Source: an uncultured archaeon
GTDB lineage: Archaea > Asgardarchaeota > Lokiarchaeia > Sigyniarchaeales > SOKP01
Reading direction: 5' to 3'
Assembly (NCBI GenBank): GCA_964508365.1
Contig: CAZDTP010000040.1
Location: 1-37,768 of the forward strand
Length of the DNA stretch: 37,768 nt
A program made the position numbers and the translations under genes. Under the pieces are notes generated by a model. The model worked only from the letters and a program-made list of their open reading frames with translations. It had not been told where the DNA came from and did not search any database. How positions within the stretch are numbered: the stretch's first letter is position 1; each line of letters opens with the position of its first letter. Positions 9,715 through 36,987 of this stretch are shown here, piece after piece.

Positions 9715-11388
9715 TTGTTTGATAAAGATTATTTAGAAAAAATTAGAATAGAAAAGGAAAAGTGGGAAGAAAAGTTAAAAGGATCAAAAGAACGCGATGT
9801 TAAATTCGTAACTGATTCTGAAATTCCTATAAAAAGGTTATACACTCCACTGGATGTAAAAGGAGATTATTTAGAAACGGTAAACTTTCCCGGCCAAGAA
9901 CCTTTTACAAGGGGCGTATATCCATCTATGTATCGTGGTAAATTATGGACTATGCGATTATTCTCTGGACATGGTACTCCCGAAGAGACTAATTTAAGAT
10001 GGAAATATTTATACGAAAATGGGGAAACTGGATTCAGTGCTGCCGTGGACGCACTTACTTTTAACGGAATTGACCCTACAAATCCCGACGGTGCCCCAGA
10101 AGTCGGAACATCGGGTGTTCCGCTCTATTGTATTGATAGCCTTTTTGCACTGACAGAGGATATCCCAATAGATAAGATTAGTGTAGCATTGGTCGTAGAA
10201 CCTTTTACGAGCGCTCCCGTTTGTGCAATGTATTTCAACATGGCGAAAATGCGGGGGTATGACATAAAAAATTTAATGGGAACAACACAAAACGATATTT
10301 TAACGATGACGGTCGGATACATCCCTTACAAGAACAGTCCACCAAATCATTTATTAAGGGTTGCATGTGATTTTATTGAATGGACAGTAGCTCAGAAAAA
10401 CGTTCCTCTTTGGCATCCTATCAATTTTACAGGATATAATTATAGAGAAGGTGGAATTGATGCAATTCAAGAACTTGGTTTTGTATTCGCAAGTGCTTGT
10501 TCTCATATTGACAATTTAATCGAGAGGGGTTGGAAAGCTGATGATTTTGTAGGTAGACTCGCTTTTCATTTAGCTGCTCATAAGGATTTCTTTGAGGAAA
10601 TAGCAAAATACCGTGCAGCTCGAAGGATATGGTATAAGCTCATGAAGGATAAATACGAAGTGAAAAATCCTAAAAATTTTGGTTTTAGGTTTCATGTACA
10701 AACCGCTGGAAGCTCTTTAACTGCCCAATTGCCTATGATTAATATTGTCCGAACAGCTATACAAGGTTTGGAAGCAAATATTGGCGGATGCCAATCTCTT
10801 CATACTAACTCTTACGACGAAGCAATATGCTTACCATCAGAACAGGCGGCTCTTGTTGCGTTAAGAACTCAACAAGTGATTGCAGATGAGACTCGAATTA
10901 CCAATACAATTGATCCCTTGGCTGGTAGTTATTATGTTGAATGGTTGACTGATGAAGTCGAGGAACGAGTATGGAACTACATGGATAAAATTCAAAAAGT
11001 AGGATCCATCGATAAAGCATTGTCGACGGGATGGCTCTATAAGGAAATGCGAGATGCTTTCCATAAGAGAAGAACTCGCCTTGAGAACGGGGAAGAAATC
11101 ATGATTGGTATCAATAAGTACAAGGTACCTTATGATACGGTCACCGATGTTTTCAGAACATCGCAAAAAGCTATCGATACCGAAGTCAATCGGATTAACA
11201 AATTAAAAGCAAGGAGAAATAACGCAAAACTAGAGAAAATTTTAGACAAGCTAAGAGTTGTATGCGAGAAGGAGGAGAATGTCATGCCCGTAATAATGGA
11301 AGCTACAAAAGAAGGAGCGACTGTTGGCGAGATATGTGATATTTACAGAGAAATATGGGGTATATGGGAACCACCATTAGCTATTTAA
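9715..11388 (+). CDS. B12-dependent acyl-CoA mutase, large (substrate-binding) subunit; methylmalonyl-CoA mutase family but atypical pocket
   Basis: PFTRGVYPSMY, WTMR, GTTQNDIL, FHVQTAG, QSLHTNSYDEA, DPLAGSYYVE; TTG start. Confidence 0.92.
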   Translation: MFDKDYLEKIRIEKEKWEEKLKGSKERDVKFVTDSEIPIKRLYTPLDVKGDYLETVNFPGQEPFTRGVYPSMYRGKLWTMRLFSGHGTPEETNLRWKYLYENGETGFSAAVDALTFNGIDPTNPDGAPEVGTSGVPLYCIDSLFALTEDIPIDKISVALVVEPFTSAPVCAMYFNMAKMRGYDIKNLMGTTQNDILTMTVGYIPYKNSPPNHLLRVACDFIEWTVAQKNVPLWHPINFTGYNYREGGIDAIQELGFVFASACSHIDNLIERGWKADDFVGRLAFHLAAHKDFFEEIAKYRAARRIWYKLMKDKYEVKNPKNFGFRFHVQTAGSSLTAQLPMINIVRTAIQGLEANIGGCQSLHTNSYDEAICLPSEQAALVALRTQQVIADETRITNTIDPLAGSYYVEWLTDEVEERVWNYMDKIQKVGSIDKALSTGWLYKEMRDAFHKRRTRLENGEEIMIGINKYKVPYDTVTDVFRTSQKAIDTEVNRINKLKARRNNAKLEKILDKLRVVCEKEENVMPVIMEATKEGATVGEICDIYREIWGIWEPPLAI

Positions 11389-11401: not shown

Positions 11402-11800
11402 ATGAGTGAGAGAAAAATTAGAGTTTTAATGTCAAAACCTGGAATTGATGGTCATTGGAGAGGTGGTATTGTAGTATCCAGAGCATTAAGAGATGCTGGT
11501 ATGGAACTCATCTTCGGTGGATTTCAAAATGTAAACCAGATCGTCGAAGCAGCAATTCAAGAAGATGTAGATGTACTTGGTCTATCGATTCATAGCGGAG
11601 CTCATTTCGCATACACTAAACAAATTATCGATTTATTAAAGGAAAGGGGAGTGTTTGAAAACATTTTAATTTTAGTAGGTGGCGTTATACCCGCTCAAGA
11701 CTTTCCAAAATTAAAAGAAATCGGCGTAGCTAATGTGTATGGTCCTGGCTCAATGACTAGTGACATAACTGAATTTATTAAAACACACGTCAAAAAATAA
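11402..11800 (+). CDS. Cobalamin-binding small subunit of the acyl-CoA mutase
   Basis: DxHxxG motif (DGHWRG), GLSIHSGAH and VGGVIP; GAGGTG RBS 13 nt after the large-subunit stop. Confidence 0.93.
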   Translation: MSERKIRVLMSKPGIDGHWRGGIVVSRALRDAGMELIFGGFQNVNQIVEAAIQEDVDVLGLSIHSGAHFAYTKQIIDLLKERGVFENILILVGGVIPAQDFPKLKEIGVANVYGPGSMTSDITEFIKTHVKK

Positions 11801-11906: not shown

Positions 11907-13388
11907 CTACTTCTTTAAATTATCATTGAGTTTGTCATCAATACCTGCAATTGCTTTTACCATTTTTTTTCTGGCTTCAATGTCGTATTGGGTTGTGATG
12001 GCAATTTGCTCCATTACAGGGGAACCCCCACCGTGATAACCTCCAACTTGCATGATACCTCCCGATGCAGAGCAAAGCATATCTCCGACATAACGCCAGA
12101 ATTGAGCTGCATTGTGAGGTGCGATCTTTGGATTTCTAGTGATGTATTTGTTAAGATAATCCTTCAATTCAGGATTTAGGAAGTCTTTTTCGTGGGGGAA
12201 GGTAGCCGGAATACCACCTGAGATGTCGCAAATAATTTCTGCTTCCCGATATACATTTTCTCCAGTTAAACATCTTCCAACATTACAATAAATAGAATTA
12301 GGTATATAACTTCCTGGACCATAGGGAATAAATCCTAAACCAGGCATGTATACCTCTGGTTTACCTAGGTCAGAAGCTGTATAACCCGCAGCGTAGCCTA
12401 GTTCCGTGACCATAATCAATTCCGCTAACTTATGCCTGACATGGGGTGCTTTATGAACATTATTATATTCTGCAGCTAATGCAGCTGTACCTGTTATTAA
12501 ATCTCCTATTGCTGGCTTACATCCAGAATAACTATGTCGATGAAATAATGCAAATAATAACGCAAGAACGCCCGCATGTTGGTATTCACCGCAGAGAAAA
12601 ACTCTTTCCCATGGAATAAATACATTATCAAAAATTATATAGGAATCTGTATAACCTGGTATAAAACCTCGTTTGAAATGTTTTCTCTCTCTTAAATTGT
12701 GAATTGTGACAACTTGCTTTACACCGTCATAATCTCCAGGGACTGCAAATGCTACAGCATAATCTTTATCCTCTGGTCGTAAAGCTCTTGTAGGGACAAC
12801 TATTATTTCATCAGACACAGACGCTTCCGAAATGTGAACTTTACACCCGTTCACTATGATTCCGTCGTCTCTTTTTTCTACGACACGAACATACATATCT
12901 GGGTCTTCTTGATCAGCAGGACGCTTTATGCGATTTCCTTTAACATCTGTTTGGGCACAGGCAGCAATTAAATCTTCTCTTTGAAATCGTTCCATCCATT
13001 TCTTAAAATTTTCATGATAATTTGTTTGTCCTTTATTCATTTTATCCGCTTCATAACTAACATTATAGACTGCATTTGCACCATCGCATCCCATGCACCG
13101 TTGAATACACCCTCCTACCTTCTGACATAGTTTACGAGTCATGTCTTGTTTTTTATGAAGGTCATCTGTGCTCTGGTGAATATGCGTAAATCTATTAATG
13201 GTTTCGTCAATTAGATGGGACTTAACTTTCATTAGATCAGATAATTCCTCCACCATATCGTAAGTCATACCAATTGTGTTAATAGTGTCCATCTGTCGTT
13301 CGTCTAATCTACTGATCTTTTCTCCGTCATAGTAGATATTGTTTTTCATTTTACCTAAATCGTTCATATATTGTTCTTTTGTTCTCAT
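11907..13388 (-). CDS. abfD: 4-hydroxybutyryl-CoA dehydratase / vinylacetyl-CoA isomerase (HpaB/AbfD fold)
   Basis: The [4Fe-4S] ligand set of AbfD is present: CIQRC (two Cys) and HRHSYSGCK (His, Cys). Also AQTDVKGNR and a GGGSP C-terminal motif. Confidence 0.85.
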   Translation of the reverse strand: MRTKEQYMNDLGKMKNNIYYDGEKISRLDERQMDTINTIGMTYDMVEELSDLMKVKSHLIDETINRFTHIHQSTDDLHKKQDMTRKLCQKVGGCIQRCMGCDGANAVYNVSYEADKMNKGQTNYHENFKKWMERFQREDLIAACAQTDVKGNRIKRPADQEDPDMYVRVVEKRDDGIIVNGCKVHISEASVSDEIIVVPTRALRPEDKDYAVAFAVPGDYDGVKQVVTIHNLRERKHFKRGFIPGYTDSYIIFDNVFIPWERVFLCGEYQHAGVLALLFALFHRHSYSGCKPAIGDLITGTAALAAEYNNVHKAPHVRHKLAELIMVTELGYAAGYTASDLGKPEVYMPGLGFIPYGPGSYIPNSIYCNVGRCLTGENVYREAEIICDISGGIPATFPHEKDFLNPELKDYLNKYITRNPKIAPHNAAQFWRYVGDMLCSASGGIMQVGGYHGGGSPVMEQIAITTQYDIEARKKMVKAIAGIDDKLNDNLKK

Positions 13389-16292: not shown

Positions 16293-17264
16293 ATGGGGAA
16301 TTATGATTTAGGAACTTTAATAACTAATTTTAAAAAAAAGGACAAAATTGCTTTAGCAAGATTAATTACACTTATCGAGAACGAACCTGAACGAGCACAT
16401 GAGGTCTTTAAGCATTTTGAAAGCGTAAGACACGAATCTTATATAATTGGACTTACTGGATCTCCTGGAGTGGGAAAAAGTACGTTAACAGGTGCCATAG
16501 CTCAAAAAATGTTAGATGAAGGCAAAACTGTTGGGATTATATCTGTAGATCCAACTAGCCCTTTTAGCGGAGGAGCATTTTTAGGAGATAGAGTCAGAAT
16601 GACTAATATTTCTTTACATCCTAACGTTTTTATGCGTAGTCTTGCGTCAAGAGGATATAAAGGAGGAATATCAAGAGCAGTATTCGACATAAGTATGTTA
16701 TATGAAGCTTTTGGTATGGACATAATTATTATTGAAACGGTCGGAGTTGGTCAAGCGGAATTTGATATCTATAATTTAGCTTACACAGTTGTAGTCATCT
16801 TAGTTCCTGGTTACGGTGATGTCATTCAGATGCAAAAAGCTGGTATTATCGAGATAGGAGATATCTACGATGTAAACAAAAAAGATTTAGGAGGAGAAGA
16901 TATAGCCGTACAAATTGAAATGATGCTCGATGATACTATATTTCAGAGTGGGTATCGACCCCCTGTTGTATTAACTGATGCTATAAAAGGTGAAGGGATA
17001 GATGAGCTTCTCCAATATATTTGGGATCATAGGGAACATATTGAATTATCTGGTACCATAAAAGAAAAGCAAAAAAATCGGTTTAATTATAAGATAAATG
17101 AACTGGTTTTCTCCAAAGTCGAAAAATTAGTCTCAGAAAAAGTTCTCAATAAAATTAAAATTAAGGAAATAGTAAACGATGCGTTGGATAATAACAGCTT
17201 TGGAATTTATGATAAAGTACACAATCTTTTCGAAAAGCTGAATTTCAAAATCGATGAAGATTAA
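16293..17264 (+). CDS. meaB: MeaB/ArgK G-protein chaperone of B12 acyl-CoA mutases
   Basis: GLTGSPGVGKST, VDPTSPFSGGAFLGDRVRM, FMRSLASRG, IETVGVGQ, VNKKD. Confidence 0.95.
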   Translation: MGNYDLGTLITNFKKKDKIALARLITLIENEPERAHEVFKHFESVRHESYIIGLTGSPGVGKSTLTGAIAQKMLDEGKTVGIISVDPTSPFSGGAFLGDRVRMTNISLHPNVFMRSLASRGYKGGISRAVFDISMLYEAFGMDIIIIETVGVGQAEFDIYNLAYTVVVILVPGYGDVIQMQKAGIIEIGDIYDVNKKDLGGEDIAVQIEMMLDDTIFQSGYRPPVVLTDAIKGEGIDELLQYIWDHREHIELSGTIKEKQKNRFNYKINELVFSKVEKLVSEKVLNKIKIKEIVNDALDNNSFGIYDKVHNLFEKLNFKIDED

Positions 17265-36105: not shown

Positions 36106-36987
36106 TTAACTAGTTAGTAGTTTTGGAAACTTCTGCTCCATCGCTAATTCTTTCTGGATGATCTCGTTCAGTAATTCTTCTCTTTCTTTACCAGATAATA
36201 TTTCCAACTTTCTAATTTTTAATGGATCTACTTTTTCTCTCAATACATTTATCTCTTTCAATGTTGGAGGTTTTGTCGTTTGAACATGGTCGGAAATGAT
36301 CAAATCAAATCCGGTTGATTCTTTAATATGATCAATATCAACGCCAGGATGAATTGATGCTAACCTCATTCGTCTGGTTTTTTCGTCAAAATCCATATAG
36401 GCTAAGTTAGAAATCATACATTGTGGTCCTGCTCCACCACATATAGAATTTTCACCATTAGGGAAGCCAACTCCGGAAACAAAATCTAATTTTTCGGTTG
36501 GAACAAATGTTCTTGAATCGTGGCGAGGTGTATACAGAAAAGATCCTCGGGCGTAAAACATACTGAAGTCAGCTATCCCCGCACAACCCGGTAATCTTAT
36601 TTTTGGTTTATTGTAGTCTCCAATACAAATATTGTTCGTGTTGCCGTATTGATCTACTTGTGCGGGTCTAAAAAATTCAATGGTAGTAAGCTTATCCGAA
36701 GGAAGAGATTCTAATGTACATTCTCCAGAATTCTGAAAGCGATAAGCTCTAGCTGTATTCATTTCTAAATAGAGCAAGGAAACTTGGCGAGGTTCGTCCA
36801 CAAAAGTATTCCCCATAATATAATGAAATATTGAGTTTGGTGCGTGCGTCATTTTTGCTAATGTAAACGCTGCCCATGCGCAAGGAGTCGCAACTCCAAC
36901 GATCATAACATCATTATTTCGAACTTCTCTTGCCATTAAAACTGTTATCATTTCATCTATAGTATAATCTTTAGAAAAATCAGTCAT
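36106..36987 (-). CDS. Class I CoA-transferase-fold beta subunit (GctB/IpdB-like)
   Basis: YTIDEM, AQVDQYGNTN, IGDYNKPKIRLPGCAG, LDFVSGVG, RRMRLASIHPGV, STGFDL. Confidence 0.85.
   Translation of the reverse strand: MTDFSKDYTIDEMITVLMAREVRNNDVMIVGVATPCAWAAFTLAKMTHAPNSIFHYIMGNTFVDEPRQVSLLYLEMNTARAYRFQNSGECTLESLPSDKLTTIEFFRPAQVDQYGNTNNICIGDYNKPKIRLPGCAGIADFSMFYARGSFLYTPRHDSRTFVPTEKLDFVSGVGFPNGENSICGGAGPQCMISNLAYMDFDEKTRRMRLASIHPGVDIDHIKESTGFDLIISDHVQTTKPPTLKEINVLREKVDPLKIRKLEILSGKEREELLNEIIQKELAMEQKFPKLLTS

Follow-up and report, generated by a model that had tools for sequence, protein, structure and literature searches.

The window is the whole stretch of DNA analysed here, 37,768 nucleotides (nt) of contig CAZDTP010000040.1 from an uncultured archaeon of the Sigyniarchaeales (Lokiarchaeia; assembly GCA_964508365.1). 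At positions 9715-11388 it encodes the large subunit of a B12-dependent acyl-coenzyme A (CoA) mutase, in the following the orphan mutase. Public records name its homologues methylmalonyl-CoA mutase (MCM), a label that is almost certainly wrong for this enzyme. The large subunit, the B12-binding small subunit encoded beside it and a MeaB chaperone would form an active two-subunit adenosylcobalamin (AdoCbl)-dependent mutase, which is not an MCM and would use a short, non-carboxylated, probably alkyl acyl-CoA. We give this reading a probability of about 0.72. The intact gene, its family, its residue pattern and the conservation of that pattern, its place in the tree and its neighbours were observed directly; activity, substrate class and pathway role we infer from them.

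Gene, family and fold

The gene is intact, and its TTG start yields a product equal in length to its homologues. The product matched PF01642 over the full length (E 3.4e-160, 534 bits, cut-off 22) and TIGR00641 with 536 bits (cut-off 304). Against the MCM equivalog NF006944, a model that also spans the fused B12 domain, it scored 432 bits with a cut-off of 876. The model of IcmF, the fused isobutyryl-CoA mutase (ICM), was distant (236 bits). The best solved relative is HcmA, the large subunit of 2-hydroxyisobutyryl-CoA mutase (HCM; 4r3u), with 436 bits over the full length and 37% identity. An AlphaFold2 (AF2) model reached a predicted local distance difference test (pLDDT) value of 92 and a predicted template modelling (pTM) score of 0.92. 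Foldseek gave TM scores of 0.95 to 4r3u, 0.92 to MCM of P. shermanii (1req) and 0.84 to the IcmF structure. A look-up in the ESM Atlas returned generic 'methylmalonyl-CoA mutase' clusters only. A literature search found no paper that ties Asgard archaea to an acyl-CoA mutase of this kind.

Substrate binding pocket

The original prediction, made by eye, was a remodelled substrate pocket with four changed motifs, and the translation has them: MRLFSGH, QNDILTMTVGY, TGYNYREGG and SVALVVEP. The residues were paired by HMMER alignments to solved structures, including 1req, 2xij, 4r3u and 5req, the last being the Y89F mutant of P. shermanii MCM. Leu82 pairs with the glutamine preceding Tyr89 of MCM. 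Phe83 pairs with Tyr89 itself and with Ile90 of HcmA; the proposed phenylalanine at position 89, as in ICM, is thus present in formal alignments. Ala110 takes the place of Asp117 of HcmA and Asn242 that of His244 of MCM. The serine, threonine and asparagine of the barrel-lining SMTMN motif are Ala158, Val160 and Glu162. Gln197 was predicted to be kept and is found as Gln192. The equivalent of Tyr243 and the scaffold of the CoA channel are retained as well. Together, the pocket residues are Leu82-Phe83, Ala110-Val111, Val160-Val161-Glu162, Gln192, Tyr202/Tyr205 and Tyr241-Asn242.

The carboxylate-binding Arg207 of MCM is lost, as had been read from the sequence. The loop past Gln192 counts 23 residues to the next conserved arginine, compared with 22 in MCM, ICM and HCM. 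Because of this additional residue, two positions are candidates for the Arg207 equivalent, Tyr202 by HMMER and Tyr205 in an alternative MAFFT placement. Both are tyrosines, and the segment contains no arginine at all. In an orthologue with 70% identity from another family (f21), Leu82, Phe83, Val111, Tyr138, Glu162 and Asn242 are kept and position 202 is a phenylalanine. This argues for a hydrophobic wall, and not a hydroxyl ligand, in place of Arg207.

The pocket positions of the motif changes are invariant across 76 orthologues. An unbiased scan detected 25 sites with a clade-specific invariant residue where canonical mutases are otherwise conserved. Chance or sequencing noise are therefore excluded as an origin of the pattern. 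In the AF2 model, Phe83, Val111, Glu162, Gln192 and Asn242 are located on the active-site face, where barrel strands end at their C-terminal side or just past that point; for Glu162 and Asn242 these are strands 3 and 5, and both residues follow directly after them. The predicted pocket is without the Tyr/Arg pair that binds a carboxylate and without the histidine that polarises the thioester carbonyl. Its lining would consist of Leu82, Phe83, Val111, Val160, Val161, Met198, an aromatic tyrosine or phenylalanine at the 207 site, Glu162 and Asn242. To our knowledge, His244 is thought to assist catalysis in all acyl-CoA mutases studied so far.

Relation to characterised mutases

With MCM (P. shermanii 1REQ, human 2XIQ, E. 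coli ScpA, S. meliloti BhbA), the orphan mutase shares the fold and the cofactor system, whereas Tyr89, Arg207, His244 and the SMTMN residues are replaced. HCM (HcmAB of Aquincola tertiaricarbonis, 4R3U; homologues Mpe_B0541 and Xaut_5021) is similar in its split large and small subunits, its MeaB partner and the absence of the MCM arginine. It differs in Ile90, Asp117 and Gln208, which are Phe83, Ala110 and Tyr202 in the orphan mutase, in its histidine, which is Asn242, and in a loop shorter by one residue. ICM (Streptomyces IcmA/IcmB; fused IcmF, 4XC6) has the phenylalanine at the Tyr89 position and a pocket for non-carboxylated substrates, and a link of the orphan mutase to butyryl-CoA metabolism, as in ICM, is probable. 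The signature of ICM is taken here to be a glutamine at the Arg207 position with His244 kept; in the orphan mutase these are a tyrosine or phenylalanine and an asparagine. Xaut_5043/5044 of Xanthobacter autotrophicus, which we take to be the characterised pivalyl-CoA/isovaleryl-CoA mutase (PCM; Kitanishi et al. 2015), is also a split enzyme for non-carboxylated substrates with a MeaB neighbour, and it has the same longer loop. Its residues Leu/Leu/Asn/Gln-His differ at each site from Phe/Ala/Tyr/Tyr-Asn of the orphan mutase, and the two fall into separate clades. The signatures at five diagnostic sites are compiled in Table 1.

Table 1. Residues of acyl-CoA mutases at the diagnostic sites (MCM numbering; Ala110 is that of the orphan mutase)
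Enzyme	Pair at Tyr89	Ala110 site	207 site	243-244 pair
MCM	QY	A	R	YH
HCM	QI	D	Q	YH
Second mutase of the genome (ICM-type)	QF	A	Q	YH
PCM (Xaut_5043)	QL	L	N	QH
Orphan mutase	LF	A	Y	YN

Reference sequences were obtained from annotated plasmid records: E. coli ScpA, S. meliloti BhbA/ScpA, the Methylibium HcmA homologue, Xaut_5021 and Xaut_5043. A Streptomyces canus plasmid gene was considered as an IcmA-like reference and rejected, as it carries the MCM signature. The original prediction that the pattern matches none of the MCM, ICM, HCM and PCM signatures was upheld against these sequences and in the tree. A FastTree phylogeny of 95 sequences placed the orphan clade (SH-like support 100) apart from the references for MCM, HcmA, ICM-like mutases and PCM; ICM was represented by sequences with the Phe/Gln/His signature, not by a biochemically characterised IcmA, and ethylmalonyl-CoA mutase (ECM) was not among the references. 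The carboxylated substrate of ECM seems ill-suited to the predicted pocket. The orphan clade joins a handful of uncharacterised sequences that likewise have the longer loop (support 95), and this group lies apart from every reference. In clusters formed at 50% identity, the entire clade is one cluster, and the nearest other cluster is 46% identical. The loci L098 and L099 (47-49% identical, beside an acyl-CoA dehydrogenase (ACAD) and electron-transferring flavoprotein (Etf) genes) had been candidates for a sister clade. They were rejected on finding the canonical Tyr/Arg signature. The idea that a link to butyryl-CoA dehydrogenase (Bcd) and Etf predates the orphan clade was therefore withdrawn.

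Genome context

The genome is 100% complete and has exactly two mutase sets. The second set (Table 2) carries the ICM signature. It shares 61% identity with a gene of Acetoanaerobium noterae and 54-57% with genes on haloarchaeal plasmids, and its annotation as MCM is probably also wrong. Most genomes of the window's family also have an orthodox Phe/Gln/His mutase. A branched-chain amino acid leader peptide was sought upstream of both mutases of the genome and not found.

The carboxyltransferase domain PF01039 had no match anywhere in the genome, which consequently is without acetyl-, propionyl- and methylcrotonyl-CoA carboxylase and without transcarboxylase. The best match to methylmalonyl-CoA epimerase (TIGR03081) in the genome scored 36 bits, with a cut-off of 115. 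The genome is without enzymes that produce or use methylmalonyl-CoA. With an ICM-type paralogue as the only other mutase and with carboxyltransferase and epimerase missing, an MCM function is very unlikely. The claim that the enzyme is not an MCM therefore stands on three lost hallmark residues, the score of less than half the equivalog cut-off and the missing pathway.

Table 2. Features of the window and the second mutase set of the genome
Feature	Position	Strand	Details
Acyl-CoA mutase large (substrate-binding, TIM-barrel) subunit	9715..11388	+	557 aa, TTG start
B12-binding small subunit	11402..11800	+	132 aa; PF02310; TIGR00640 135 bits
AbfD-type 4-hydroxybutyryl-CoA dehydratase/vinylacetyl-CoA isomerase homologue	11907..13388	-	348 bits to C. 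aminobutyricum AbfD (1u8v)
Dedicated MeaB G-protein chaperone	16293..17264	+	TIGR00750 291 bits, above cut-off
Glutaconate-CoA-transferase-family beta-like (GctB-like) subunit	36106..36987	-	PF01144 CoA_trans; 25 kb from mutase
Second mutase set: large subunit, small subunit, MeaB	contig C17, L001:1441-4490		ICM signature Phe89/Gln207/His244

Partner subunits and cofactor supply

The small subunit starts 13 bases 3' of the large subunit, and the distance is 13-30 nt in 77 of the 80 related loci that were compared. The base-off/His-on motif DxHxxG reads DGHWRG. An alignment with canonical small subunits revealed a one-residue deletion. The core order of large subunit, small subunit and MeaB is widely kept, with the small subunit in 77/80 and MeaB in 62/80 loci. 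In most relatives, MeaB follows directly 3' of the small subunit, at about +500 nt. In the window, three genes separate them: the AbfD-type homologue, a threonine synthase and a major facilitator superfamily (MFS) transporter. The genome encodes exactly two MeaB proteins, one for each mutase set. A single CobA-type adenosyltransferase is present in the genome; in basal relatives this gene is also found within the mutase cluster.

Gene neighbourhood

The 80 related loci were placed on a tree, with the nearest outgroup as root. On the basal branches, a Bcd-like ACAD is located directly upstream of the mutase in divergent orientation. Its best solved match is Bcd of C. difficile from the bifurcating Bcd-EtfAB complex (404 bits), and its best NCBIfam match is the acryloyl-CoA reductase AcrC. 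The basal operon also holds EtfB and a ferredoxin-domain EtfA. Within the window's own subclade, three relatives have a crotonase along with the Bcd-Etf operon. Downstream of the mutase, the basal branches have a glutaconate-CoA-transferase-like (GctAB-like) pair and often the CobA adenosyltransferase. The ancestral neighbours are thus a butyryl-CoA dehydrogenase/EtfAB operon and a GctAB-like pair. This neighbourhood loosely links the orphan mutase to the butyryl/crotonyl-CoA hub. Some orthologues of the Bcd-like ACAD have a single in-frame stop codon, TAG in G192:C60:2329-3507 and G252:C40:960-2138 and TAA in three others.

The GctB-like gene of the window is orthologous to L071:10144-11040 (74% identity, BLASTP E 4e-177), which in basal relatives sits right after mutase and MeaB and has 100 bits to GctB (1poi_B). 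The cluster 'CoATa' was found in 17 loci. The basal orthologue forms a pair with another PF01144 subunit (about 285 amino acids). The window's GctB-like protein is a possible pathway partner of the orphan mutase. The basal orthologue also matches Myxococcus chains of the 'glutaconate CoA-transferase family' (5mzw), presumably the AibAB decarboxylase, and IpdAB (6co6). Because of these matches, the window's protein may not be a transferase.

In one subclade, a conserved block of five genes follows 3' of MeaB (L014, L017, L018, L026, L039, L041, L057 and L081). It consists of a small open reading frame, a double-cubane/HadC-like protein, a member of the HGD-D family, a GlcD-like flavin adenine dinucleotide oxidase and a CCG-domain Fe-S protein. 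The block looks like a 2-hydroxyacid dehydrogenase combined with a module resembling 2-hydroxyacyl-CoA dehydratase.

The AbfD-type gene is convergent with the mutase and lies 106 nt past the small subunit. The residues aligned with Cys-x3-Cys and His-x6-Cys of 1u8v are kept. We take these motifs to be the Fe-S ligands of AbfD, and by its sequence the homologue looks functional. The gene adjoins the mutase in 8 of the 80 loci, which belong to three separate subclades; there it sits between small subunit and MeaB. None of the basal arrangements has it. For genomes that both searches sampled, an AbfD orthologue is present in 26 of the 48 with the orphan mutase and in 9 of the 13 without it. In genus g3, all four genomes (89-100% complete) have the mutase but no AbfD-family match at E <= 1e-80. 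AbfD is a later insertion that was not co-inherited with the mutase, and a functional link is uncertain. Both may occasionally share a role. The genome has three AbfD-type paralogues, the window's gene, G000:C5:53005-53811 and G000:C21:8998-9789. The most distant of the three (about 40% identity) has one in-frame stop (TAA, TAG or TGA) within the match in many related genomes.

Alternative readings and implications

Judged by its family, the TIM barrel of the orphan mutase would bind an acyl-CoA. Cleavage of the Co-C bond of AdoCbl would be followed by hydrogen abstraction, and the -CO-SCoA group would shift to the neighbouring carbon. The substrate would feed or drain the butyryl-/crotonyl-CoA pool. 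It is most likely a non-carboxylated, mainly alkyl acyl-CoA of about C4, perhaps C5. In a rough split, a butyryl/isobutyryl-type or C5 alkyl substrate is favoured at somewhat below even odds, a hydroxy- or amino-substituted C3-C4 acyl-CoA is about half as probable, and something else takes the remainder. The pocket pattern may point to a new specificity class, as originally proposed. A rearrangement outside the known acyl-CoA mutase reactions, running without the catalytic His244 and connecting the butyryl/crotonyl-CoA hub of Loki-type Asgard archaea to a B12-dependent branch, is a tentative proposal with chances just short of even. Candidate new substrates come from C5 alkyl pairs, such as 2-methylbutyryl/valeryl-CoA, or from hydroxy- or amino-substituted C3-C4 pairs, for example lactyl/3-hydroxypropionyl-CoA, a rearrangement treated as new to nature (PMC11599936).

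Several observations weigh against an active mutase at this hub. The replacement of His244 by asparagine makes activity an assumption. The Bcd orthologue is also present in genomes without the orphan mutase, the Bcd-Etf operon of this genome is on contig C41 and not beside the mutase, and another Asgard family has a canonical Tyr/Arg mutase beside ACAD-EtfBA as well. Dozens of other uncharacterised metagenomic mutase clusters have unorthodox pockets as well. The orphan mutase is one orphan lineage among many, and an unusual pocket by itself is no rarity across the superfamily.

A drifted ICM that interconverts butyryl-CoA and isobutyryl-CoA would tie valine or isobutyrate to the Bcd-Etf butyryl-CoA pathway. 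The phenylalanine at the Tyr89 position, an ICM hallmark, the missing carboxylate-binding arginine, the hydrophobic pocket with tyrosine or phenylalanine at the 207 site and the ancestral neighbours butyryl-CoA dehydrogenase-EtfAB and crotonase are all compatible with such a reaction. It is nevertheless rather unlikely: the genome and most of the family already have an orthodox Phe/Gln/His mutase, complete with a small subunit and a MeaB of its own, Gln198 and His244 of ICM are replaced, 25 otherwise conserved sites are altered and the clade branches far from ICM-like sequences. A hydroxyacyl-CoA substrate, either 3-hydroxybutyryl-CoA/2-hydroxyisobutyryl-CoA as in HCM or lactyl-CoA/3-hydroxypropionyl-CoA, would agree with HcmA as the best solved match in sequence and fold, with the GlcD-like and dehydratase-like genes downstream in some relatives, with AcrC as top NCBIfam match of the ACAD and with bulky Phe/Tyr residues that would suit a smaller substrate. 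This is improbable with phenylalanine and alanine in place of the HCM determinants Ile90 and Asp117, a position in the tree apart from HcmA and a dehydratase cluster restricted to a single late subclade, with only 8-9 of the 80 loci.

Conversion of 3-hydroxyisobutyryl-CoA to 4-hydroxybutyryl-CoA, followed by AbfD-catalysed dehydration to crotonyl-CoA, would be a reduced analogue of the MCM reaction. The convergent AbfD homologue with intact putative Fe-S ligands and its insertion in three separate subclades speak for it. An obligatory route of this kind finds no support in the phyletic pattern, because AbfD is rarely adjacent and never so in basal arrangements, was not co-inherited, occurs in sampled genomes with and without the mutase, and is missing in all four g3 genomes. 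The phenylalanine at the 207 site of the f21 orthologue also leaves no hydroxyl ligand. The route is quite improbable. Highly improbable are an MCM, as the public records have it, or a catalytically dead paralogue resembling the MutA subunit, since the loss of His244 could mean lost catalysis. For an MCM, all three hallmarks, the equivalog score and the carboxyltransferase and epimerase are lacking. A dead paralogue is contradicted by the private B12 subunit with intact DxHxxG, the private MeaB and an invariant pocket in proteins conserved across 80 species-level genomes. The preferred reading is still the active, non-MCM mutase for a short non-carboxylated acyl-CoA.

Asgard archaea are the closest known prokaryotic relatives of eukaryotes, and their metabolic reconstructions count the orphan-mutase gene as MCM. 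MCM-type genes of Asgard archaea have been invoked for alkylsuccinate rearrangement (PMC8163825); in this genome no pathway surrounds such a reaction. A new substrate would lengthen the short list of acyl-CoA mutase specificities known from nature. If true, a reaction without His244 would show this 'general acid' to be dispensable, and the enzyme would be a new scaffold on which to engineer carbon-skeleton rearrangements. If the orphan mutase is a second ICM, the finding shrinks to an annotation correction.

Distribution in Asgard archaea

The distribution was studied in a sample of 300 genomes across the phylum. In the window's GTDB family, 55 of the 69 sampled genomes have an orthologue with at least 77% identity. 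Family f21 has one in 5 of 6 genomes (69-71% identity), family f4 in one genome and family f7 in two bins. The remaining sampled families contain only paralogues with 42-47% identity. Across the 80 species-level genomes, orthologue identity is 77-97%. Beyond a single GTDB family of Loki-type Asgard archaea and a neighbouring family, orthologues are almost absent. Since other families hold only the distant paralogues, the names Thor-, Odin-, Hod- and Hermodarchaeota on some NCBI records exaggerate the spread. A 97%-identical and fully syntenic copy, from CorA through the mutase to MeaB, is present on a contig labelled 'Candidatus Nanopelagicaceae bacterium' (L042, DATKTW010000125.1), which is probably mis-binned.

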